Source: a virus
Length of the DNA: 64,000 bases
Strand: one strand, 5' to 3'
IMG/VR virus record: IMGVR_UViG_3300029349_000001
Location: 32,001 to 96,000 of that record
A model generated the notes under the pieces. The model was not told the origin of the DNA. It saw only the letters and a list, made by a program, of their open reading frames with translations, and ran no database searches. The position numbers and the translations under genes were made by a program. Below are positions 5-63,755 of this stretch, piece by piece. Every line of letters begins with the position of its first letter. Positions within the stretch are counted from its first letter, which is position 1.

Positions 5-3000
5 ATGCCAAAAACAGAGATATCTGGCGATAGTATCAAAGTTGATGGGAAAAATATAATTATAGATAGTCTTCTTGATCCAAAATCTAGACCAGACTTA
101 TCTCCCCAGGTTGATGTTACTTCAACAGCCGATGGCTACAAACAATTGATAACCGTATCTAATCTTTCTAAAAAAACGGGTAATTTGCATGGTTTATATA
201 CTAAAAATAATATAAATACTATTCATGCAAATAGTGATGATATGGGTGGAATCGGGAATATATATGGTATTAATGCACAGAATAGGGATCTAAGCGGATA
301 TCCATATACTAGGATAGTAGCCGGATTGGATAGTATGAGATATGCTGGCCTAGGAGGCTTCTCTTCTATGGATATAGCTGGAGACCTTGCTTCTCAGACA
401 ACTAATTATGACAATTCCATGTTCGATGGTGATATGGCACAAATTAAACAGAGACTATCTAATGCTCAGATAGTGAAAGCTAATCTAGAAAGAACAAAAG
501 AACTATTATCTGGCGGTAACGTTAAACTTCAAGAGAGTGAAACATCAGAAGCTAATAGAAACTATGTAAATAAACTACAACAATTACTTAGCGGTTCGGT
601 ATTTAAAGCGACTTTTTCCGAAGCCGAAATAAAAGGAAAAGATTCTGTCAAGCCACCCATAACTCTGTATAACCTAGATGGTAATGATTGGGATTCTAGA
701 GTAGATGTTCTTGACAAGGATGCTTCTGTTACAAAAGGAACGTACGCTGGTAAAAAGGGCTCTAGCTGGATCCCTGTTGGATCAAGAACCATGGGCGTGG
801 GAACAGTACCTGATCAATTTAGTATTCAAAAATGGTTTCCTTGGGTTGGGTCTGGATTTAATTCTACTATTTTTGATGATCTTAAAAACAAATATAATGC
901 ACAGAATCCAAACAATGTAAAGGTAACTCCAGGATCATATGCTGATGATATAATGGCATTTAATTATAAAAACATAGAAGGACCTATGTTCGATGCTAAT
1001 AAAAAGATGACCAAAAACAAATACAAGTTTACAACAGTTTCGCTGGATCAAAATACTGTAAACGAGAAACTGAATCCGTTCCGAGACTTAGTTGATCAAA
1101 ACCTTCTTCCACAAGATCCAGAAAAATCCGAGATTTACGCAAACACTCCGGGTGATCTAATAGGTATGATCAAAAATTTGGTCAATAATACTATTCTAAG
1201 AACTCAACAAAACACTTTATCATTTGGTAGTTCTATTAAGAGATTATCAGCAGCAGACAAAGCTATAGCAGACCTAGATTTTGCTCAACAAACAAAAGAT
1301 AATGCTTATTTACTTAATTCTATAGCACCAGGATTTCAATACGAAGCAAAATTATATGGAGACGAACTAAGAAAGAGAATAGCACAACAAAAACAAGATC
1401 AACAAGCAGCAGCTGGAGAAAAAGGGATAGCCAATAAAGCAAATCTTCAAGACCTACCAGAAAATCCGCTATTGTTAGCCGAACAAGCGAGAGGCATAGT
1501 TAGTAAAGTCTTATCTCCTGTTTCTGGAATTTTATCTGCATACAATATTAAACTCTCTCCTATTAGAGTAGCATCTCAAATTGCTCCATACGGTAATTAT
1601 TTATTACAGGCTCAACAGTTTTTTGGTGATGCTGTAACTCAAAAATTTAAAAACAACAAGAAGGGAATAGACCAAAGACTATGGAATGTCTGGGGAGCGC
1701 TCGGGGCCTCTGGTAAAGTATTTGAAAAACTAGGAGCGGGAGATAAGCAGGGGCTACAAACCCTATTAGGTTCTGCTGCTAGTACTCTAGATAGTACAGA
1801 TTTAGGAGATATGGTTGTACGATATGGTCAATTGTTAGCGGCTCAAGGAGCAACATTCGCTGGTACAGCTGGGCTATCTACTCCGAAAGACGTACTAAAG
1901 AAAGAAATTGGAGACAACGACAAACAAACAATAGAAGGTATATTTAAGAAAGCTCAAACAGAAGAGGCTACAGTAGCCAGAGATGGTAGATTAACCGTAA
2001 ATAAAACCGAAGGAAGGAATCTGCCGACCAACTTATTAGATCTCGGAAAGAAAATAGTTAACCCATACTCCACATTCCAACCTGGAGATCGTAGTCCTTT
2101 ATTTGATATTCTTCTCAAAGGATTGGAAACACACGACAACAAGGGGGTTAAACGCAATGTTAATGAAAAATTAGTCACCAATCTCAAAGCTCTAAAACAG
2201 TTCTATGCTTCATTTTTAGATCCGATAGTAAGCGGAGGGGTTGCTCCAAATGATGATATGATACGGCAGATATCTGATCAGTATCCAACAATGAACGCTA
2301 TTTTACAAGTATTAACTAATGGCGAATATGGAGCGATGCCGGATGCTAAAAAAATGCAAGAGCTTGCAGCTGCTAAAAAAGCCAGAATGGAAGCAGAGAA
2401 AAAGGCTAGTGGCGGCATAGTATATGCGAGCACTGGAACCCTAGTAGACTATAAACCCAGAGGGACTGATACTGTTCCAGCGATGTTAACACCAGGAGAA
2501 TTTGTAGTTAATAGACAATCAACATCCAAACACTTACCATTATTACGTGCTATTAATAGTAATAGATATCAAACAGGTGGCGTTGTATCCCCCAACTATT
2601 ATGAAGCCGGTGCGCTTGCATCAGGAGCAGCAAAGACTGTCGGTGCTATAGCAGGCATGGTCGGTATCAAATTAGATACCAAAAAACTAGAGACAGATAT
2701 TACATCAGCATTCGATAGCGGTTCTCAACAACTAAAGAGTCAACTTCAGGGTATTTTTGGATTAAAATCAGAAGACCGCAATGCATTAATATCATTTGGT
2801 ACTAGTATGGTAAGACTAGTATCTCAGCTAGCTCAAGTTAGTATACCTCCAGAAATTAAGTTCAGTATGCAGCCAGTACAAGTGAATATTACAGGCGCTC
2901 AAGGATTGACAGAGGCTGCTCAAAGTCTAATTGATGGAGCAATCAAGAAAGCTTTTGATGATTTTTTAAGTATTAATGATTTGCAGGGTACCTATAAAGC

Positions 3001-3016
3001 GCCAGATGAAAACTAG
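5..3016 (+). CDS. Tail tape-measure-like protein, C-terminal part (probably begins upstream of the window)
   Basis: C-terminal ASGGIVY...RGTDTVPAMLTPGEFVVNR...LLRAIN motif typical of tape-measure C-termini; Ala/Gln/Leu-rich helical composition; frame is open to the window edge. Confidence 0.7.
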   Translation: MPKTEISGDSIKVDGKNIIIDSLLDPKSRPDLSPQVDVTSTADGYKQLITVSNLSKKTGNLHGLYTKNNINTIHANSDDMGGIGNIYGINAQNRDLSGYPYTRIVAGLDSMRYAGLGGFSSMDIAGDLASQTTNYDNSMFDGDMAQIKQRLSNAQIVKANLERTKELLSGGNVKLQESETSEANRNYVNKLQQLLSGSVFKATFSEAEIKGKDSVKPPITLYNLDGNDWDSRVDVLDKDASVTKGTYAGKKGSSWIPVGSRTMGVGTVPDQFSIQKWFPWVGSGFNSTIFDDLKNKYNAQNPNNVKVTPGSYADDIMAFNYKNIEGPMFDANKKMTKNKYKFTTVSLDQNTVNEKLNPFRDLVDQNLLPQDPEKSEIYANTPGDLIGMIKNLVNNTILRTQQNTLSFGSSIKRLSAADKAIADLDFAQQTKDNAYLLNSIAPGFQYEAKLYGDELRKRIAQQKQDQQAAAGEKGIANKANLQDLPENPLLLAEQARGIVSKVLSPVSGILSAYNIKLSPIRVASQIAPYGNYLLQAQQFFGDAVTQKFKNNKKGIDQRLWNVWGALGASGKVFEKLGAGDKQGLQTLLGSAASTLDSTDLGDMVVRYGQLLAAQGATFAGTAGLSTPKDVLKKEIGDNDKQTIEGIFKKAQTEEATVARDGRLTVNKTEGRNLPTNLLDLGKKIVNPYSTFQPGDRSPLFDILLKGLETHDNKGVKRNVNEKLVTNLKALKQFYASFLDPIVSGGVAPNDDMIRQISDQYPTMNAILQVLTNGEYGAMPDAKKMQELAAAKKARMEAEKKASGGIVYASTGTLVDYKPRGTDTVPAMLTPGEFVVNRQSTSKHLPLLRAINSNRYQTGGVVSPNYYEAGALASGAAKTVGAIAGMVGIKLDTKKLETDITSAFDSGSQQLKSQLQGIFGLKSEDRNALISFGTSMVRLVSQLAQVSIPPEIKFSMQPVQVNITGAQGLTEAAQSLIDGAIKKAFDDFLSINDLQGTYKAPDEN

Positions 3017-3067: not shown

Positions 3068-4501
3068 ATGATCAAATCCCCCATAAGAGTCGTTGAAAAT
3101 ATAGGATCTTATTGCCATGAGACTAATAATCGATTAGTTTTGGGCGAGATTCTAGATGGATATGCTGGACTATCTATTAATGACCATAATACATATATAC
3201 CATATATATGCAAGTCTTTTGATCTTAAAAACTGGGAGATAGGTATTGGTCTAGTGTCTGTTGTGGACTCCAAAGTTACTGTGGAGCGTGTTAGGGTAAT
3301 CAAAAAATCTTCAGAAAGTTATCAATTTGTTGGTAATAATAATCTATTTTATGTGTTTGCTAATGAATATAACTTTAATACTGGACTAAATAATTGTGTA
3401 GCATTAGAAGATCAAACAACTCTAGTTAATATTAAATGTACTTATTTAAAAACCAATGATTCTAAAGACACGTATGAACTACCCAGCAGCACAAATAATC
3501 AAGGATTAGCTATAGACTTTAAGAACACATCAGACTCAACTCTATATCTGCATAATTCAGATGAAAATGAGACATATGCTTGTGGACCCGGAGAATATCT
3601 TAAAGTTATAAGTGATGGAAATAGTTGGATTAAATTATACAGTGTGGTTGATTCTTTGGGTGTTGTGTCTTTATCAGCAGAACAACCGAACTATTTTAGT
3701 ACACAAAATCTAACAGCTTCTGGAATATACGGAGCCATACAATATAATAATAACGGCTCTATAGATGGTTCTAATCTAGTAATTAGCAGCGGATTATTAT
3801 TGCTAGGCAGTAGCTCAACGAACCCCTCGTCTGCTCAAAATATCATTCCATTATCTCTCTCTAATAAAGATACAATTTTTAATAACAACAATACTTCTGG
3901 CAATTTTATTGTTAAGGGTCTTGGTGATAAGAATTTAATTTTTACAAAAGATGGCAGACTAGGACTCAATATTCCCAGCGGTTCATTACCTCAAACAGCA
4001 TTGCACGTATTAAGTTATGCTTGTCAAGAAGGTATTAGGTTGGAAAATAGAAATTCCTGCTATCCTGCAAATCTGACCCTATATCATAAGCCTTCTACTT
4101 TGCCATCCAACGGCAGTATAGTATCAACCATTAATCTATCATCTAAAAACTCCGCCAATGCACAAGTTAATTACTCACAACTAAGATCCAAAATCATTAA
4201 TTCTGATTCTGTATCTAGTAGTGGCGAATTTGCTGTAGCAATACAGAATAACGGATCGTTAATAGAATCATTAAGAATTAATCCAACTGGATTTATAGCA
4301 TCTGTTAATACCAATTCTATTGTAGTAAATAATAATGGTATTCAATTAAACGGATCTTTAAGAACTAATCAGATTGCTACTAGTGGTAGCTTTATGATGA
4401 CTGATGGTAGTGGAAATTTAGTTTTGACAAGCCTTAATAATAGTCCTATAATAAGCTTGTTAGATGGTGATGTTGTCACATTTACTGGAGTATGTTCATG
4501 A
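3068..4501 (+). CDS. Virion/tail-fibre-associated protein
   Basis: 477-aa ORF with RBS; GAIQYNNNG and GRLGLNIPSGSLPQTALHV segments resemble tail-fibre repeats; ends in LDGDVVTF. Confidence 0.55.
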   Translation: MIKSPIRVVENIGSYCHETNNRLVLGEILDGYAGLSINDHNTYIPYICKSFDLKNWEIGIGLVSVVDSKVTVERVRVIKKSSESYQFVGNNNLFYVFANEYNFNTGLNNCVALEDQTTLVNIKCTYLKTNDSKDTYELPSSTNNQGLAIDFKNTSDSTLYLHNSDENETYACGPGEYLKVISDGNSWIKLYSVVDSLGVVSLSAEQPNYFSTQNLTASGIYGAIQYNNNGSIDGSNLVISSGLLLLGSSSTNPSSAQNIIPLSLSNKDTIFNNNNTSGNFIVKGLGDKNLIFTKDGRLGLNIPSGSLPQTALHVLSYACQEGIRLENRNSCYPANLTLYHKPSTLPSNGSIVSTINLSSKNSANAQVNYSQLRSKIINSDSVSSSGEFAVAIQNNGSLIESLRINPTGFIASVNTNSIVVNNNGIQLNGSLRTNQIATSGSFMMTDGSGNLVLTSLNNSPIISLLDGDVVTFTGVCS

Positions 4502-31784: not shown

Positions 31785-33767
31785 ATGCCATATGCCCTGA
31801 ATACTAATACTGGTTCCGACGCTGTAGAATTTTCAGCTCAAACAACAACAAACAAACCAGTATCAATTTTATTCAATGGTTCTGGCATTCATACCATCTC
31901 TGGTCCAGTACCTCTAGTTGATATTTCTAAAACATATAATAGAACTAGTGCTGGAGAAATAGAGAGCGTTCTTAATACTATTACCTTAACTGGTAAAATT
32001 ATTAGACCAGATATTACTCCGCCGCCTACCAGCGGTATTCTAACCGTGATGAATGCTATCAGTGGACTGCAAGCGTTATTTACTAAATGTTCTACTGGTC
32101 ATCTAATTATTAAGTGCGACAACACCGACATGCTTAATGTATCTGGTGTTATGGTTAAGGATATGTCTTTTAATAAATCCGAGGATAATTGGGTATATAG
32201 TGCAGATTATAATATAACCATGGAATATTATGAACCAGGACAAGCGGGTGGCTTTGCTGTACAAAATACTAGCGATTCTTGGTCAATAGAACCATTAGAA
32301 GACTATGTATATAGTTCTTTTACTACGTTGGTTAACACCAAACCAGAAACCCATAATCCTCAATTAAAACCCAATCCTATTCCGGGAGGATCGTCTACTG
32401 GTGGAGGTTCCAATTTAGGTGGTGCTGCTGGGTCCACTACACTCAAAATTATAAACGTTCCACAATATAGAATATCTAGAAGGTTATCCGCTGTTGGGCT
32501 ACCGGTTTCATCAGCAGTATCATCTGCAACAGCGCCTTGTGTTAGCGGGGCTGGTAACAGAGCATATGCAGAAGCTCGTAAATGGGTGGAATCAAGACTC
32601 GAATATACCTTCGAAGGCACTAAGGTTAATAACAATACATCCGGATCTAGTGGTCTAGCTCATGTTATGGTGAGCCCAAGTATCGGTAATTTTAAAGACA
32701 CATTTTTATATAATCATATTCGTAGTATAAACTTTAGTGTTACAGATGGATCTTATGAAGTTAATGATACATGGCTTGCTATGCCAACTGGTATTAAGTA
32801 TGTAGAAGACTATAGTATTGAAGCTTCGACAGACGAGAAATATGTTAAGACCGTAAGAGTTCAAGGAAATATTAAAGGTCTTTATATGTCGTCTTTTGAG
32901 GTGATGAAAGGCAGTGGTGGAGCCGGATTGCCGCCAACAGGAGCCGGATATCTTAATATTGTTCCCAACTCTGGAAGATTAACAGGATCACTACCAGGAG
33001 CCGGTAATATACTCGATCTTGATAATACAGCAGGGTCTCAACCTACTTTTTACAGCAATCCTTATCAGAACGCAAGTAGTGGGTGGATTTTTGATATTAA
33101 GCCATATGTTTATCGTAGAGCTTCATTAGCAGTATATAATAATATTCACGACAGAAATCAGAACTACGTATCTCCAGCTACCAATCCGCCACCACCCCCA
33201 AACAATCCAATGTACTGCCATGAGTCATTACTAAATGCTATTCCTGTAAGTACAACAGAAGGACACGACCCAAGAAAAGGCACAATAAGCTATAGCTATG
33301 AATTCAATAATAAGTTTAATTTAATTACTGGAGTAATATCAGAAAATATTACCCTTAATGAAACTGGTCCAACAGACGTATTTAGTGAAGCATTTGTAAT
33401 AGGTCGTCAACTTGGGCCAGTTATTCAATCACTAGGCACAAAAACCTCCACAAGAAAAGATCTCACAATAGAAGTTGTGGTAGTTCCTCCGTCGTCAATC
33501 GAAGGTCTAATAATGACCAATAACCAGTGTCCATTGTGGACAGGCGGTTCGGTGTATAGTCGTATACAAGGAATAGTTGATGGATTAAAACCATTTGGTG
33601 CTAGAAGTAACACCTATTTTGGTAATTTGCAAAGAGGTCAGCTACCAGGACAAGTATATTTATCTCAGGACAATCATTCATGGAATCCAACAGAAGGAAG
33701 ATATTCTAGGTCTGTTAGTTGGGTATATCAACAATGCTCAACCGATAAGTTTTATCTAGATCACTAA
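31785..33767 (+). CDS. Putative tail protein (distal-tail-like)
   Basis: 660-aa beta-rich ORF, NTITLTGKI and GTISYSYEF segments, position upstream of two very large tail-like ORFs. Confidence 0.45.
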   Translation: MPYALNTNTGSDAVEFSAQTTTNKPVSILFNGSGIHTISGPVPLVDISKTYNRTSAGEIESVLNTITLTGKIIRPDITPPPTSGILTVMNAISGLQALFTKCSTGHLIIKCDNTDMLNVSGVMVKDMSFNKSEDNWVYSADYNITMEYYEPGQAGGFAVQNTSDSWSIEPLEDYVYSSFTTLVNTKPETHNPQLKPNPIPGGSSTGGGSNLGGAAGSTTLKIINVPQYRISRRLSAVGLPVSSAVSSATAPCVSGAGNRAYAEARKWVESRLEYTFEGTKVNNNTSGSSGLAHVMVSPSIGNFKDTFLYNHIRSINFSVTDGSYEVNDTWLAMPTGIKYVEDYSIEASTDEKYVKTVRVQGNIKGLYMSSFEVMKGSGGAGLPPTGAGYLNIVPNSGRLTGSLPGAGNILDLDNTAGSQPTFYSNPYQNASSGWIFDIKPYVYRRASLAVYNNIHDRNQNYVSPATNPPPPPNNPMYCHESLLNAIPVSTTEGHDPRKGTISYSYEFNNKFNLITGVISENITLNETGPTDVFSEAFVIGRQLGPVIQSLGTKTSTRKDLTIEVVVVPPSSIEGLIMTNNQCPLWTGGSVYSRIQGIVDGLKPFGARSNTYFGNLQRGQLPGQVYLSQDNHSWNPTEGRYSRSVSWVYQQCSTDKFYLDH

Positions 33768-57845: not shown

Positions 57846-58223
57846 CTAAAACGCCACAGTTTCCTTGCTGTCGCCCGTCTTAGATGTTGCTCTCGATAGC
57901 TTTGTAATCTTCGAGAAATTATTCACCCTGACCTTGAGGGTGTTATGCTTAACGCCGTCCTTTTCCCAAGAATCATTCCTTAAAGATCCTTCGATAAGTA
58001 CTAGATCACCCTTCTTAAAGGATTCACCAATTACTTCGGCACCAGAATCCCAAGCTTCACAATTGATAAAGGAAGTAATCTTATCCTTTTCGCCATTGTT
58101 CTTGGTATATTCACGAGAAGTAGCAACGGTAAAATTAACCACTGATGTCTGCTTATCTCCGCTACCAACCACTCGTAGTTCTGGATCTCGTGCAAGATTA
58201 CCCTTTAATAGTACAATATTCAT
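57846..58223 (-). CDS. ssb: Single-stranded DNA-binding protein
   Basis: N.V.L.GNLARDPELR...F..CEAW...KGDLVLIEGSL...W; ends in ETVAF; GGAG RBS. Confidence 0.93.
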   Translation of the reverse strand: MNIVLLKGNLARDPELRVVGSGDKQTSVVNFTVATSREYTKNNGEKDKITSFINCEAWDSGAEVIGESFKKGDLVLIEGSLRNDSWEKDGVKHNTLKVRVNNFSKITKLSRATSKTGDSKETVAF

Positions 58224-58273
58224 AGCTAATCATCTCCATAAAAATGTTTAAAATACCAAACCGTCACAGTACT

Positions 58274-58301
58274 ATTATATGAATCGGGCCTGTGGTGTCA
58301 A
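58274..58301 (-). promoter_or_regulatory. Sigma70-type promoter for ssb
   Basis: TTGACA (58301-58296), 16-nt spacer, TATAAT (58279-58274) on the minus strand. Confidence 0.75.
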
Positions 58302-59920
58302 GTCATAGGCTCAAAACACTTTGATACAACCAGACCGTCTCCTGTTTTCGTTTTATCGCCAAAAAATACAAGAATATTTCCTTCAAATAGATGGTGCTTA
58401 TACTCAGCCAATTGTTCTGGAAACATTATCAATGAGTCTAATATTCCTACAGAATCTTCGATGCTGATAAATGCCATTTCTTGTCCTGGGTTTTTTCCTC
58501 TTTTAGTTTTGATAAAATTAACCGAAGAAATTTCACCAGCAATAATAACGTTTTTGTTATATGCAGAAGTTTTAAATGTTTTGCAGTCGGTGTTTGTCAT
58601 TGTCGTGTCGTATGTATCTAGTTTAGAACAGGACAATGCAACCCCGAGCAAACCGTTTTCAGAGTCTGAAATCCACTCTATCTTATCTGTTAAAGAAAAT
58701 GGAGGATGTTGTATTGTATGTATTAGATTATTAATTGCTTCTTTTCTTTTTGTTGTAAGCTTAAGGGTGGCAACGCCATCTAATAACATCTGTTCCAGAT
58801 TTTTGTAGTTTTTGACTAGTCTTAGTTCATTGAGTTTTTCTAATTCTTTTGCTGTTAATGCTGATAGAATATCTAATTCCAACAACATTTCCGTGCGAGT
58901 CTTTTTACTAAAATCTACAGCACCACAAGAAATTAGTGATTTAGCTGCGGCAGAGTTGATATTTAGTAAAATATCTATGAGAATATCATACCAAGACAGA
59001 GCATACAAATCTTTACCAGAACAAATACCTAATAGTTTTTTATATACTGAAGCTCCGACAGCCTTTATGTCCGTTAGGCCAAAATATATCTCTTTGTCTT
59101 TGATGTAAAAGAATTCATTTAAATTACGTAAGTCTGGTATTCTGATACTAATACCCATGCTATTAGCATTTCTAACTAATTCTTTAATTTCTTGCTGTGG
59201 ATCAATTTTATCTTTAGCATATCTGAGATATGAAGCAAAAAATATCCTTGGAAAATGTGCTTTGGCATAGGCTGATAAATACGCATTAACCGCATAAGAC
59301 ACAGCATGACTAGCGTTGAACAAATATCTCTGACTCTTTTCGATCCATCCGAATATCTGTTCTGCTTCATCCGTGGTAACAATACTCAGTTTAGCACACC
59401 CGTCGATAAATTGCTTTTTAACCTTGGCCATTTTATCGGCTTGTTTTTTGCCGATAGCTTTTCTTAGTTCATCAGCATCTTGAAGATTGAATCCGGCAAC
59501 AGACTTAGCAATACCCATCGCCTGTTCTTGATAAACCATCTCTCCGTATGTTTCCTTAAGAATAGGCTCTAACGCAGGATGGAAGTAGTCAATAGCCTCT
59601 AATCCGTTTTTTCTGTCTATATAATGATGAGATACGCTCTTTCCATCTCGATAAGCTTCCAAACATCCCGGCCTTAAGATAGAAATTAGTGCAGATAATT
59701 GTTCTATATTTTCCGGTTTGAGTTTTTTTGCCATAGATTGGCCCAGCCTTGATTCTAGCTGGAAACATCCCTTGGTATTGCCTTCTGATATCAACTCCCA
59801 TGTTCTAGAACAAGACAGATTGATATTAGCAATATTAGGATCAAAAATAATTTTGGGAGTTGTTGAATGTTCCGATATAGGAAATTTACAACCACAATCA
59901 AATGTAAAATAACTTGACAT
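58298..59920 (-). CDS. dnaE: DNA polymerase III alpha, C-terminal piece (finger, HhH, OB fold)
   Basis: GCFQLES, LRPG, ETYG.MVYQEQ.M, LRKAIGKK, Y.FN.SHAVSY, FGL..IK.VG, MAFISIED. Confidence 0.92.
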   Translation of the reverse strand: MSSYFTFDCGCKFPISEHSTTPKIIFDPNIANINLSCSRTWELISEGNTKGCFQLESRLGQSMAKKLKPENIEQLSALISILRPGCLEAYRDGKSVSHHYIDRKNGLEAIDYFHPALEPILKETYGEMVYQEQAMGIAKSVAGFNLQDADELRKAIGKKQADKMAKVKKQFIDGCAKLSIVTTDEAEQIFGWIEKSQRYLFNASHAVSYAVNAYLSAYAKAHFPRIFFASYLRYAKDKIDPQQEIKELVRNANSMGISIRIPDLRNLNEFFYIKDKEIYFGLTDIKAVGASVYKKLLGICSGKDLYALSWYDILIDILLNINSAAAKSLISCGAVDFSKKTRTEMLLELDILSALTAKELEKLNELRLVKNYKNLEQMLLDGVATLKLTTKRKEAINNLIHTIQHPPFSLTDKIEWISDSENGLLGVALSCSKLDTYDTTMTNTDCKTFKTSAYNKNVIIAGEISSVNFIKTKRGKNPGQEMAFISIEDSVGILDSLIMFPEQLAEYKHHLFEGNILVFFGDKTKTGDGLVVSKCFEPMT

Positions 59921-59925
59921 ACAAT

Positions 59926-60621
59926 TTAGTTCGTGGCGAATGATCCTCTAAATTTAACCTTTTTACCTAAATTCCTGTGCAGTCTTAAGAATCTAATAAG
60001 AATATCGGCAGTATCTCTAACGTCCTTTAAGGCGTCGTGAGCACCCTCTTTTGATATTCCCAAATAGTCTCTTAGGTTATCTAATGTATAGTTTTTAAGT
60101 TCGTTGTTAGATTCAAACCAGTAGAATATAACATTCATTACATCAACAACGTCTCTAGGATAAAATAGTGAAGACCTACCTTCTTTATTGAGGTTGTTAT
60201 ACTTCTTACTAAGCCTCTCGATAATACGAAGATCAAATCTATTAATATTGTATCCTGCTGCAATTGGGGCAGTAAAACAGGATCGCTTATCGGATCTAAT
60301 ATGATACTTTTCTAGATAAGACAAGAATAATTTCCAAGATTGTTGCTGAGGCGTATAAGAATGCCACATTTTTAATATGTCATCTTGTGAACAACCACGA
60401 ACCTTTGAATGAAATTCTAGTATATCAGAATCAGAATATGTATATGTAGAATCGGCCTCAAGTTTCTCGGGCTTGATACTAACATTGAATTCTGAGTCTG
60501 GTATAATTTCTAGTCTTAATGGATCGACAATAACCGCCGCTATTTGAACTGGACTGCATGAATCCGGATCGGATCCATCGGTTTCCATATCAAACACACA
60601 AAGTTTTTGAAAATTAGGCAT
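59926..60621 (-). CDS. DEDDh 3'-5' exonuclease (DnaQ/epsilon-like)
   Basis: FDMET, GYNINRFD, AHDALKD motifs. Confidence 0.88.
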   Translation of the reverse strand: MPNFQKLCVFDMETDGSDPDSCSPVQIAAVIVDPLRLEIIPDSEFNVSIKPEKLEADSTYTYSDSDILEFHSKVRGCSQDDILKMWHSYTPQQQSWKLFLSYLEKYHIRSDKRSCFTAPIAAGYNINRFDLRIIERLSKKYNNLNKEGRSSLFYPRDVVDVMNVIFYWFESNNELKNYTLDNLRDYLGISKEGAHDALKDVRDTADILIRFLRLHRNLGKKVKFRGSFATN

Positions 60622-60796
60622 TTACTTGTACCGTTGTATCCTCTGTAAAAAATGACTTAACTGACGAGTTATTTACTTCTTGAGCATTGATAGACTTGCA
60701 GCAACTTACCCTTACTGTTTCTATCTTAACATATTCCATTCCATTGACAAAAAATCTATCATTAACACCAAGTTCATTAAATTTCTTATCTACCAT
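60614..60796 (-). CDS. 60-aa hypothetical protein
   Basis: Fills the gap between dnaE-N and the exonuclease; GGAG RBS. Confidence 0.65.
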   Translation of the reverse strand: MVDKKFNELGVNDRFFVNGMEYVKIETVRVSCCKSINAQEVNNSSVKSFFTEDTTVQVNA

Positions 60797-60798
60797 GA

Positions 60799-62695
60799 TT
60801 ATTCTCCATTTTTAAGAAAGTCAGATATCGTCATAATTTTATCTAACATGGCTACGCCAAGGATATCAAACTTAATCCCACCTATCGCTTCTAGGTCTTG
60901 CATTTCCATACCAGCAATAGTTTGTTTATTTTTTGTGTCATAAACCATAGGACACATATCTGATAATCCTTGACTACTGATTAGTACACCAGCCGCATGT
61001 TTCGATTGATTAGACTTAGTTCCTTCCAGACGAATGGCTTGTTCAAACCTTTTGGCTAGAGGACCGGCCAACTCTCCGTCTTCATTAATATAGCACCACT
61101 CCTTGAGTTTGTCAACATTGTTTTCTAAGGCCCAGCGGATTATGGAAGATTCGCCAGTATCATCTTTCATTTCTTGGAGTTCGTCGGCAATTTTTGCTTC
61201 GTCGGGAATATGTTTGGTAATACGATTCATTTCTTCGAAGCTAATATTATCATATGCCCTAAGTACGTCTTTTAAGGCGCCTCGACCTTTCATAGTATTG
61301 AATGTAATCATTTGAGATACCTTATCTCTACCATACTTATTCTTGATATAGTCGATTACTTGTTCTCTCTTATTAATTGGTACGTCTATATCAATATCTG
61401 GCATACTTATTCTATCTTTAGTATTTCTTCCAGCGTTATAGAATCGTTCAAATAATAGATTATATTTAAGCGGATCTATGCTAGTAATACCAATTAAATA
61501 AGATACTAAACAGCCAGCAGCACTACCTCTGCCGGGACCGGGTAACCATCCTTCGTTTCGTACATATTGTACAATATCTTGCACTATCAAAAAGTAACTA
61601 GACAGACCCGCACCCTGTAGAACATCAAGTTCAGATTTTATTCTATCTACATATTTCTGCTGTTCTTCTGTGCTGATATTATTCTGTATTTTTTCTTTCC
61701 ATCCATTTCTACATAATTGTCTCAAGTATTCGTCGGGATTGTAACCCTTCGGACAATCAAAGGATGGCAAATGTGGCTTGTCTAAGATGTCATATTCTTC
61801 GCACATCTCAGCGACTATATTAGTATTCTCTATTTCTGTTTCATTGTGCAAAGCGGATATTTCTTCTTGAGAGGGTATGTGATAGTTGTCCGATAAAAAG
61901 AAGCAATCCATGCCAATTGATTCTTGATTTTGTATTTTGCTATTAATTTTACTCAAAGTTGTTTTGAGATTATTACATAACAAAATCCTCTGATCCATAG
62001 CATCTTCTTTTTCTGCGTAATGAGCATCAGGAGTACATATAACCTTTGTGTTGGTTGACTTCCCTAAATCTCTAATAGCGCCAGTTAAACTAGCCTGTAA
62101 TGCTATATTTTCCTGGTCCATAAGTTGAGCTTCTAGAAATACATTTTCATTACCAAAAATATCTTTAATATTATGGATAAAGTTCGTCCCAAGATTCATA
62201 TAGTCTTTTTTGATTGTATTATTGTCGGTAATAATATTTGCTAGAGTAGAACCTAAGTGTCCTACTACAGCAATCATATTTCCGGTCTCGACTATTGATC
62301 TAAGGGTTTCTATGTCTAGTCTTGGCTTATGATAAAAATATTCTGGCTTATTAGATTCGGAGACTATTCGAATTAAATTCTTCCAGCCCTTATAGTTTTT
62401 AGCAAGTACTATAAAGTGCGATAGTTTGCGATTAGAGGGTTCTTGTATAGACGGATTCTGATCGCATATATAGAGTTCACAACCCAATATAGGCTTGATG
62501 CCCTTCTTGGTCATGTCACTATAGAATTTGACCGCACCGGCAATGTTACCATGATCGGTTAATGCACAAGACTTTGCTTCTATCTTTATGCATCTATTTG
62601 CAATTTGTTGAGTTTTACTTAGTCCATCCAATAGAGAATAGTGTGATTCTCTAAGAATGGACGTGTAAAGGAACATATTTCCTATTCACGCCCAT
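60799..62695 (-). CDS. dnaE: DNA polymerase III alpha, N-terminal piece (PHP + catalytic palm); true start probably 62695 with a 10-nt coding gap at 62653-62644
   Basis: HYSLLDG, ALTDHG, KPILGCE, DAHY, GPGRGSAAG, FERF, PDIDID, HAAG, KFDILG; YVPLHVHS is in a different frame directly behind an AAGGAG RBS. Confidence 0.9.
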
Positions 62696-62711
62696 CTATT
62701 TTGTCTCCTTA

Positions 62712-63755
62712 TTAAGTGGTGCTTCCTGGAGCCTTATATTGTCCAAATGCATGGTTCTTATTTTTATACTGGTTTGTTACAGTATTGATTCCGTACAGTT
62801 CTATTTCATGTTTAATTTGTTCACATTTGGTCATAGTGGAACCAGTACCACAAGTCTGACCATCTCTATATTCTGTTAGTGGCTGCACATGCGTATTGTC
62901 AAATGTGGTTTTGCCAAAATGACATAACTTGTTACACATCCAGCTTTTATTTAATTTGGGGCGTTTTGATTTTTTGATTATTTCAAATTTGTGTCTCAAC
63001 ATATTCTCAGTTTCGGCCAAGTCTTTTTTATCAAAACAGATGGAAAATGGACCGCCATCATTAATAAAATATATGGAAAAAATGATATGATCTATATGTG
63101 GATATAGATGACTAATAGCATAATGATATATTCTTAACTGAGGATCTCTTTCTAGCTTTTCTTGTGTCTTTTCTTCGCCGGTAGCCCAGTCTAATCGCCT
63201 GCCGGTCTTCCAGTCGATCACTTCTATGGTATTATCGTTGATCAGCGTGATCAAGTCAATAGTACCTTTTAGTGCAAGATTGCCCGAAATCTTACCGTCT
63301 GCCGTATCATATTCATAGGCAGACCACGGCTTCTTAATCTCGAAATCAAAGTGTTGTTCTGGACAAAGAATATTTCTTTTTCTTGGATCAAACATACCAT
63401 CATTAAATTCTATCGCTTTATAGACCCAATTATGGCAGTCTTTATAGTCTTTCAACGACCACTTATGATGTGGACTGTGAGTGGAATAGTAATTATATAC
63501 TTTTTCGATAATAGTATTTAAAGAGTAATTATTTACATCTAATTCGCCAACCACATCATCGATGACAATATTTTGATTATCTTGTTGTGCCTTTTTAATT
63601 ACAGCTAATATTTCTAGCACCTTGTGCGTAATAGTGCCTTTATCAGCCTTTTGTCCAGAAGGAGATCTCCAGCCTAGCACGTATTCTAAGTAATATTGTT
63701 GCTCGCACATTGAGTGCGTATTAAAGCTAGAAGATCTAAAATAAGTAATAATCAT
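62712..63755 (-). CDS. PD-(D/E)xK nuclease (RecB/AddB/Cas4-like)
   Basis: S.S....C...Y, GT..H..LE, GTIDL...IDWKTG, QL..Y, C-terminal CNKLC...C. Confidence 0.8.
   Translation of the reverse strand: MIITYFRSSSFNTHSMCEQQYYLEYVLGWRSPSGQKADKGTITHKVLEILAVIKKAQQDNQNIVIDDVVGELDVNNYSLNTIIEKVYNYYSTHSPHHKWSLKDYKDCHNWVYKAIEFNDGMFDPRKRNILCPEQHFDFEIKKPWSAYEYDTADGKISGNLALKGTIDLITLINDNTIEVIDWKTGRRLDWATGEEKTQEKLERDPQLRIYHYAISHLYPHIDHIIFSIYFINDGGPFSICFDKKDLAETENMLRHKFEIIKKSKRPKLNKSWMCNKLCHFGKTTFDNTHVQPLTEYRDGQTCGTGSTMTKCEQIKHEIELYGINTVTNQYKNKNHAFGQYKAPGSTT

Follow-up and report, generated by a model that had tools for sequence, protein, structure and literature searches.

The interrupted start of dnaE

The DNA analyzed here, called the window, is a stretch of 64,000 nucleotides (nt) from a virus (IMG/VR record IMGVR_UViG_3300029349_000001, positions 32,001 to 96,000). 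It encodes a phage DnaE in two genes (57846-62676, minus strand), one for the PHP and palm domains (614 amino acids, aa) and one for the fingers, HhH and OB domains (540 aa). The first of these, the N-terminal gene, is interrupted at codon 14/15 by a gap of 10 nt. An earlier note, made from the letters of this DNA, had proposed that ribosomes hop over the gap in the manner of T4 gene 60. The comparative analysis supports such a hop: in relatives, gaps of 6-12 nt fall in three frames behind three different stop codons, the stems around them co-vary, and a gapless revertant (L073) exists. Programmed translational bypass, a short ribosome hop over the gap, is the explanation that we favor, with a probability of roughly 0.7 as judged from sequence comparison.

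Coordinates are window positions, and the dnaE site is read on the minus strand. A Shine-Dalgarno (SD) sequence, AAGGAG (62710-62705), is followed after 9 nt by ATG (62695-62693) and then by the codons GGC GTG AAT AGG AAA TAT GTT CCT TTA CAC GTC CAT TCT. This open reading frame (ORF) of 14 codons (62654..62695), the mini-ORF, is translated in frame 0 as MGVNRKYVPLHVHS and ends at TAG (62653-62651). The codon ahead of the TAG, TCT (Ser14, 62656-62654; UCU in the mRNA), is the putative take-off codon, and UAG would be the A-site stop at take-off. TAG forms the first 3 nt of the coding gap UAGAGAAUCA (62644..62653) and is followed by AGAATCA (62650-62644), the end of which is the proposed landing triplet UCA (62644..62646). 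Next comes CAC (His), where DnaE decoding would resume, and the sequence runs on from 62643 as CAC TAT TCT CTA TTG GAT GGA. This layout of SD, mini-ORF, TCT-TAG, 10-nt gap and HYSLLDG is as the earlier note had given it, base for base. An SD-like leader is also present in gapped variants from relatives.

The frame that begins at 62643 is open over 614 aa (60799..62643) and encodes the N-terminal polymerase piece, with a PHP domain and the Pol III alpha palm/NTPase domain. Both Pfam matches exceed the gathering score (PF02811, 114.5 bits; PF07733, 255.1 bits). The PHP profile match begins at position 7 in the window ORF and at position 2 (LHVHS) in gapless relatives. Therefore the main ORF lacks precisely the five residues with which the mini-ORF ends, profile positions 2-6 including HxH, with nothing between. 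Deletion of the 10 nt (62653-62644), predicted beforehand to restore the PHP motif, rejoins the Pfam profile exactly. Translation also bears out that the version in the ORF track (60799-62676), which begins MFLYTSILRES-HYS, lacks HxH, and that readthrough of the TAG would run into another stop, a frame-0 TAA 11 codons past the TAG.

Recurrence of the gap and selection on its flanks

A scan of IMG/VR with the DnaE piece gave 80 loci with 68-98% protein identity. The motif ATG...HxHS-xYSLLDG is uninterrupted in 60 of them, and in the other 20, as in the window, it is broken at exactly the window's codon. Two DNA-pattern scans, which left sequence and, within broad limits, length free between the conserved flanks, yielded 49-54 distinct variants; the tallies given below differ in coverage and include 36, 37, 38, 49 or 54 variants depending on the count. 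Comparison of related dnaE 5' ends, which had been suggested as a check, thus places some 50 distinct variants from independent metagenomes at the same codon, with the stop always first and the hairpin largely kept, a recurrence that chance could not plausibly produce. Outside IMG/VR, megablast against GenBank phages gave no match, and the best tblastn matches to GenBank phages are only ~35% identical; no close cultured relative was found. A pattern scan of one-per-species cellular genomes returned only chance matches or ordinary in-frame DnaE and no host or prophage copy.

These data bear on whether the break is real. One window alone could exclude neither a pseudogene nor an assembly or sequencing artefact, and assembly error had been listed among the alternatives in the earlier note. 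Two contigs from other metagenomes, with 98% protein identity to the window, have the same gap with one A-to-G change (A-U to G.U), and an artefact of assembly or sequencing is therefore ruled out. With some 50 variants from independent samples, strong purifying selection downstream and stems that co-vary, comparative data effectively refute both a pseudogene and an artefact, which we regard as extremely improbable.

Gap lengths of 6, 7, 8, 9, 10, 11 and 12 nt were found in 1, 1, 3, 11, 14, 17 and 2 variants, respectively (n=49). Sorted by length modulo three, the variants number 14, 15 and 20, and no frame is favored. A stop directly follows the Ser codon in 49/49 variants (TAA 26, TAG 20, TGA 3) in a scan that permitted any sequence there. 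As take-off codon, the 38 variants tallied have TCT or TCC, and one more (L195) has TCA. Stop-codon reassignment was considered and rejected: the site has all three stops among its variants, the majority of gaps are out of frame, and the window is densely coded with long table 11 ORFs. No tRNA genes were found in the window, so it provides no phage suppressor or special Ser tRNA.

The same tallies bear on conventional recoding, in which each lineage would use an event of its own, +1 for 7- and 10-nt gaps, -1 or +2 for 8- and 11-nt gaps and readthrough for 6-, 9- and 12-nt gaps, and would gain 2-4 extra PHP residues (HVHS-RES-HYS in the window). The +1 frame through the window's gap is open (AGA GAA UCA), an A-site stop beside a structured region is a classic shift-prone context, and a 3-residue insert in the loop after the first PHP strand might be tolerated. 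However, no single frameshift or readthrough fits, because gaps of 6, 9 and 12 nt are in frame and those of 7, 8, 10 and 11 nt are not; one conserved set of signals would have to serve three mechanisms, and with all three stop codons. Re-pairing in +1 at UCU-U is poor (UCU to CUU). A stop in the downstream frame lies inside the 7-nt gap of L195 (TCA-TGAGTGA-GAA) and inside the gap of L188/L191 (TAAGTGAACT). A shifted ribosome that read on would therefore terminate, ruling out a simple +1 shift there. Gapless relatives never have extra residues at this place, and the revertant L073 has no insert. Lineage-specific recoding thus appears unlikely.

The end of the gap was also examined. The last 3 nt, the putative landing triplet, are TCN in 33/49 variants, ACT in 9, GCT in 5, TTT in 1 and TGA in 1, and no earlier TCN triplet was found within the gap in the 38 variants checked. 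A TCN at the end of the gap and none before it is what re-pairing predicts. Each of the non-TCN triplets, read from the letters, leaves 2/3 positions pairable with a Ser anticodon. The matched landing codon that had been claimed for the window (UCU/UCA) is there, but a cognate TCN is confined to those 33 variants. A single mechanism would fit every variant, namely that peptidyl-tRNA(Ser) leaves its codon and decoding resumes after the gap.

Selection was then read from codon differences on both sides of the gap. The main ORFs of the window and L001, a 98% relative, differ at 144 codons synonymously and at 11 nonsynonymously, and other gapped pairs show the same excess of synonymous differences. 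This pattern indicates that the downstream dnaE gene is functional and under purifying selection. Each of three related records searched has one dnaE-N copy. In the mini-ORF, the Pro, Leu, His, Tyr and Ser residues are unchanged over 38 variants, with 5 synonymous codons used for Leu and 2 for each of the others; the sole variable residue of the motif (V/I/T/A/S) is variable in gapless genes too. Synonymous-only change at P, L, H, Y and S therefore argues that the 14 codons are translated in that frame and selected as protein. Conservation of the mini-ORF peptide is confounded with the PHP motif and with the stems described below. Hand-reading of two groups of variants with His after the gap (H-type), one with an 11-nt gap (L023 group) and one with an 8-nt gap (L024 group), found the DnaE frame free of ATG, GTG and TTG from the stop that precedes it up to HYS. 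Both pieces would therefore have to be joined in one polypeptide, and an independent start for the main ORF was rejected for these hand-read variants.

Ten variants have ATG after the gap and form an HVHS-MYSLLDG lineage (L185, L187, L188, L191-L194, L196, L197 and L203). In these ten, AGGTGG or AAGTGG within the gap precedes the ATG.

Termination at the UAG could be followed by reinitiation, either at the UUG of LLDG or at the AUG of the M-type variants. The product would be a truncated DnaE, possibly complemented in trans by the peptide, and the mini-ORF would be a regulatory leader. The second Leu codon is UUG in 35/37 gapped as against 24/41 gapless sequences, AUG stands immediately after the gap in ten variants, the start codon of the mini-ORF is sequestered in a stem that resembles a translational operator, and 70S sliding and reinitiation are documented (PMC11194080). 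The truncated protein, however, would lack HxH, and HYSL as well if begun at UUG, residues that never vary in gapless relatives and that in gapped ones are conserved while their codons vary synonymously. The enrichment of UUG is explained equally well by the lower helix (see below), which uses the UUG bases. Moreover, H- and E-type variants have no start codon immediately past the gap, and the SD-like bases of the gap are paired and badly spaced to the UUG. Reinitiation is consequently an improbable explanation of the family as a whole.

A natural loss of the gap was found in L073, a gapless locus that groups with gapped L055 and L104 in the DnaE tree (SH-aLRT 100). Here ...CAT TCT is joined directly to CAT TTT TC... 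(HVHS-HFS), and the loss is precise. A revertant that groups with gapped loci and joins HVHS to HFS shows which protein is selected. The same precise deletion is also what might be expected if the 10 nt were removed before translation, by RNA excision (micro-intron, editing) or by deletion in a subpopulation of the DNA at TC..TC microhomology, and UC dinucleotides do bracket the gap, which is embedded in a hairpin. To our knowledge, no bacterial or phage mechanism splices inserts of 6-12 nt, and Rfam detected no known RNA family in the region. Neither the invariable stop after the Ser codon nor the conserved, translated mini-ORF would have a role in splicing, and the gap persists across independent assemblies despite the 144 synonymous differences between the window and L001. 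Prior removal of the gap is very unlikely.

Co-varying helices and the proposed hop

The earlier note had described an 8-bp hairpin that begins at the stop. This upper hairpin (62632..62653) pairs UAGAGAAU with AUUCUCUA around the loop CACACU; UAG provides its first 3 nt and the Y-S-L codons its 3' arm. In the window it is a predicted minimum free energy element (DNA letters TAGAGAAT/ATTCTCTA; z -3.6 for the 101-nt region), and across variants its first base is base 1 or 2 of the stop. The hairpin was missed by RNAalifold, because varying gap lengths put the MAFFT alignment out of register, and pairs were therefore counted with a register-aware script. In the 6-bp core, 283/294 cells are paired over 49 variants, compared with 250 in shuffles that exchanged hairpin arms among variants, and 0/2000 shuffles reach the observed count; the two arms of one variant pair better than arms taken from different variants. 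At the Ser wobble position U-A, A-U and C-G pairs are all seen, and A, U or G there goes with matching changes in the gap (AGAGA/UCUCU, AGUGA/UCACU, AACGA/UCGUU, AGCGA/UCGCU). Variants with a UGA stop have CUC as the Leu codon.

Beneath this hairpin is a lower helix, an addition to the features of the earlier note. Its 5' strand, GUCCAUUC (62655..62662), spans the His13 codon and bases 1 and 2 of the take-off codon, and its 3' strand, GGAUGGAC (62622..62629), lies in the L-D-G-L codons. All 8/8 pairs are present in 48/54 variants. A U-A pair is replaced by G-C in L184 and L190, the two variants with an HCH motif. Synonymous sites in the helix are nearly fixed in gapped sequences (GAT 37/37, GGA 35/37) compared with gapless ones (32/41 and 20/41). 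[quoted passage not shown] The predicted free energy in the window is -20.7 kcal/mol (z -6.4), four relatives have z of -3.5 to -5.9, and gapless L004 shows no structure (z +1.2).

A further helix, the 5' stem, joins the start of the mini-ORF to its end. The 5' arm AUGGGCGUG (62687..62695) contains the start codon and forms 9 pairs with the 3' arm CACGUCCAU (62657..62665), immediately 5' of the take-off codon. Over 36 sequences 99.4% of cells are paired, with 8 compensatory cells and exchanges between G-C and A-U, and RNAalifold predicts the stem unaided. The arms change in step in L184 (ATGGCAG/CTGCCAT) and L190 (ATGACGATG/CATTGTCAT), and the stem has decayed in the revertant L073. Because the 5' stem and the lower helix both use the same GUCCAU, they are mutually exclusive. 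Within the 5' stem is an inner hairpin, AGGAA/UUCCU (62669..62683), whose register varies among relatives on inspection of the alignment. Stem positions that are not Watson-Crick are mostly G.U on the sense strand, which points to RNA rather than duplex DNA.

GATGGAC occurs at the start codon of most gapped relatives (GATGGGC in the window, 62687-62695) and again in the Asp-Gly-Leu codons (62621-62627). The segment ahead of take-off could pair with either copy, and could act as an initiation switch as well.

The hairpin first described for this site stands as a predicted structure, but as the top of a two-tier take-off stem-loop with an alternative 5' stem. A competing 5-bp hairpin, ATTCT-tag-AGAAT, had also been pointed out. 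It is present in the letters of the window, but on inspection variants with a different gap sequence lack it. It was rejected as a functional part and is probably incidental.

Two variants have unusual gaps. In L195 the 7-nt gap lies wholly within the stem, the take-off codon is TCA and the last triplet is TGA. The gap of L205, TAATCT, is 6 nt and in frame (Ser-stop-Ser); the upper hairpin is lost, the lower helix is partly lost, and the sequence suggests that this may be a decaying element.

Bypass at this site might proceed as follows. Ribosomes would initiate at the SD-led AUG, melt the 5' stem and synthesize the 14-residue mini-ORF peptide. On arrival at its end, peptidyl-tRNA(Ser) would occupy UCU in the P site with UAG in the A site. 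Decoding of the stop would be slow, since it forms the base of a hairpin that could refold in place, as has been described for gene 60. The peptidyl-tRNA would unpair, the mRNA would slide by 10 nt, and the tRNA would re-pair at UCA. CAC would then enter the A site to give ...YVPLHVHS-HYSLLDG... with the PHP motif intact, and the peptide across the hop junction would be YVPLHVHSHYSLLDGLSK. As CACGUCCAU leaves the exit channel it would zip with the free start-codon arm of the 5' stem, supplying the forward direction.

Several points weigh against this mechanism. The landing triplet is not a Ser codon in 16/49 variants, so strict codon-anticodon re-pairing leaves some cases unexplained. Non-cognate landing is the main weakness of a strict re-pairing model, and structure may set the landing too. 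The landing site lies within the loop of the hairpin, not beyond the hairpin as in gene 60, and the role of the take-off hairpin is one that we infer. The nascent chain is only 14 residues long at take-off, so a tunnel signal of the gene 60 type is doubtful. On inspection, SD-like motifs of the GGTGA, AGTGA or GGAG type were found in 18/38 gaps, ~1-3 nt from the landing triplet, and no consistent mini-SD was seen at a spacing like that of gene 60. Reinitiation is an alternative in the ten variants with ATG after the gap. The co-variation could come partly from repeated cassette transfer or co-conversion and not from independent compensations. Finally, the window is without an endonuclease gene of its own, such as stands upstream of the gap in some relatives.

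A putative endonuclease cassette and known bypass systems

Gapped loci are scattered on a DnaE-N tree of 70 rows, on which well-supported branches force at least 5 changes and parsimony requires 11. A single-origin clade for the gap was rejected by this tree. Compared with L109, the window has 92% identity in the cassette and 65% in the 300 nt that follow. In six contigs (L062, L086, L087, L105, L177, L178) an HNH/endonuclease VII-like gene lies directly upstream of the gap. The ORF, which in L062 lies at 3239-3961, is 240 aa, with an N-terminal helix-turn-helix and PHROG matches to HNH and endonuclease VII families; no Pfam HNH match was obtained, and a PDB sequence search returned nothing significant. 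Its stop codon overlaps the start of the mini-ORF in the loci that bear it. Close homologues retrieved in IMG/VR adjoin gapped dnaE in 5/5 cases, and the gene is in none of the gapless loci examined. Inspection of the alignment gave a family motif DRIDS..N..N with Arg at the usual His position. HNH enzymes usually carry His where DRIDS has Arg, so endonuclease activity is uncertain.

In the window, the gene upstream encodes a PD-(D/E)XK (Cas4/RecB-like) nuclease (62712..63755, minus strand). Its stop is only 16 nt ahead of the mini-ORF ATG, leaving no endonuclease gene there. The leader between them, AATAAGGAGACAAAATAG, resembles the 3' end of the endonuclease gene (...ANKEKI...), and in the bearing loci the endonuclease ORF runs through the leader. 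We infer a mobile cassette, borne by an HNH-like homing endonuclease gene, whose right end comprises the leader, the mini-ORF and the gap; the window would then be an endonuclease-less relic that is still decoded by hopping. The earlier note had proposed that recoding gates expression of the polymerase; the comparison suggests rather a piece or remnant of a homing-endonuclease cassette. By analogy with MobA, the gap would disrupt the target of the endonuclease in conserved PHP-coding DNA and so give immunity.

In one gapless relative (L005:3381-3965) a Methyltransf_24 DNA methyltransferase-like gene lies between the nuclease gene and dnaE, the position of the endonuclease in gapped relatives.

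The remaining replication module of the window (57846..60796, minus strand) consists of a 60-aa ORF and a DEDD (RNase T/DnaQ-like) exonuclease gene, both between the two DnaE genes, the DnaE C-terminal gene and, after it, SSB. The nine loci inspected share this gene order, and matches to each gene were obtained in 62-80 of the 80 related loci. In L062 (6660-9673), which is gapped and bears the endonuclease, the DnaE C-terminal gene is fractured into an N-extein with Hint/intein-N, a LAGLIDADG ORF (305 aa) and a separate ORF for the remainder. This arrangement has been described under the name of fractured genes (PMC2677866). Selfish endonucleases appear to be drawn to the replication module.

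On the plus strand the window has very large ORFs (5812-46823; 1111, 1267, 1718, 1557, 1452, 2045 and 2303 aa). Six other window ORFs were compared with PHROGs, and only 5-3016 received a name, from a weak tape-measure-like match. CheckV rates related records of 65-67 kb as 45-49% complete, so the genome is probably ~140 kb.

Efficient natural bypassing is known in few systems: T4 gene 60 and its homologues, the byps of yeast mitochondria and a candidate in phiHau3. No published description of a dnaE bypass was found in full-text literature searching. Gene callers give the polymerase a false start (MFLYTSILRES...), and similar gaps elsewhere will likely be overlooked or called pseudogenes.

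In gene 60 the take-off codon belongs to the 5' side of a take-off stem-loop and is next to a stop, and a 5' stem-loop and the MobA cassette complete the arrangement (Manning & Atkins, bioRxiv 10.1101/2022.08.31.505936), and pairing of the exiting mRNA in the 5' stem-loop has been put forward as the forward driver (Wills et al., bioRxiv 10.1101/2024.12.09.627546). The dnaE element is alike in having its take-off codon in the 5' side of a stem-loop whose upper stem opens with the adjacent stop, a putative landing triplet that the same tRNA could usually read, and a 5' stem that could form from exiting mRNA. Both gaps lie near the 5' end of an essential replication gene and in a highly conserved motif. 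The MobA/gene 60 gap shields its carrier from its own nuclease and often outlasts the nuclease (bioRxiv 10.1101/2022.08.31.505936). Likewise, the dnaE gap has a free-standing HNH-type gene upstream in some genomes and is kept where that gene has been lost, and in both systems the distribution on the host-gene tree is patchy, with natural precise losses.

The differences are also clear. The dnaE gap is in a PHP motif and not in the topoisomerase II large subunit, there is no sequence homology, and the gap is 6-12 nt compared with 50 nt in gene 60 (20 nt in the shortest MobA clade). Landing in dnaE would be inside the loop of the take-off stem-loop. Take-off comes after 13-15 codons, which makes a long nascent-peptide signal unlikely, and there is no clear mini-SD. 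The 5' stem-loop of gene 60 is poorly conserved, whereas the dnaE 5' stem includes the start codon and co-varies strongly. Unlike MobA, the dnaE-linked endonuclease does not split the target gene. One third of dnaE variants are without a cognate landing codon, and the dnaE element is known from sequence alone. MobA elements are exclusive to Topo2L, and the gene 60 cassette has been called unique (bioRxiv 10.1101/2022.08.31.505936). With a dnaE host gene, a gap of 6-12 nt and MobA confined to Topo2L, the dnaE element is therefore analogous to MobA/gene 60 and not a member of it.

The nearest known system in gap size is the terminase gene of the Streptomyces phage phiHau3, a candidate 10-nt bypass with a rare UUA trigger (Antonov et al. 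2023, PMC10732093). As in dnaE, a phage gene is broken by non-coding blocks of ~10 nt, a short hop is proposed, and inserted residues would be expected to be disruptive. A 5' stem-loop and SD-type signals are proposed there as well. The phiHau3 trigger, however, is a hungry UUA codon (bldA tRNA, host physiology) and not a stop, the gene is another one, and there is no link to an endonuclease. The phiHau3 case comes from few sequences only, whereas the dnaE element has ~50 variants with co-varying structure.

Hops over stops have been described in E. coli reporters, for example CUU-UAG-CUA (Weiss et al. 1987, as cited in PMC10732093), and yeast mitochondrial byps tolerate imperfect landing matches (bioRxiv 10.1101/2022.08.31.505936). 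In both, as proposed for dnaE, peptidyl-tRNA leaves its codon next to one that is a stop or cannot be read, and re-pairs further on, at a distance of a few to tens of nt. The byps are mitochondrial inserts of 27-55 nt. The reporter hops are reportedly synthetic events of low efficiency with no dedicated structure. In dnaE, unlike both, the proposed hop would be needed for an essential gene, and its site is surrounded by three conserved helices. The +1 frameshift of prfB (RF2) resembles the dnaE site in its A-site stop, in recoding just before that stop near the start of the gene, and in being SD-led. It differs in that the codon entered by the prfB shift overlaps the one left (CUU U) and an SD stands 3 nt upstream, and that dnaE variants differ in frame, some having gaps that are in frame or that hold downstream-frame stops.

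We lean, with less assurance than for the hop itself, toward a second, evolutionarily independent bypass family: a minimal hop of 6-12 nt in the first PHP motif, carried and outlived by an HNH-like endonuclease cassette, with a pre-take-off toggle between take-off stem-loop and 5' stem and with landing set at least partly by RNA geometry. An independent family with ~50 natural variants would offer a small (~100 nt), easily mutated model for ribosome release, forward movement and landing. If true, it would also support a general rule, that selfish endonucleases place protective inserts in invariant motifs as ribosomes can skip the inserts. The dnaE element would present a bypass layout like that of gene 60 in a different gene, non-homologous to gene 60 and MobA.

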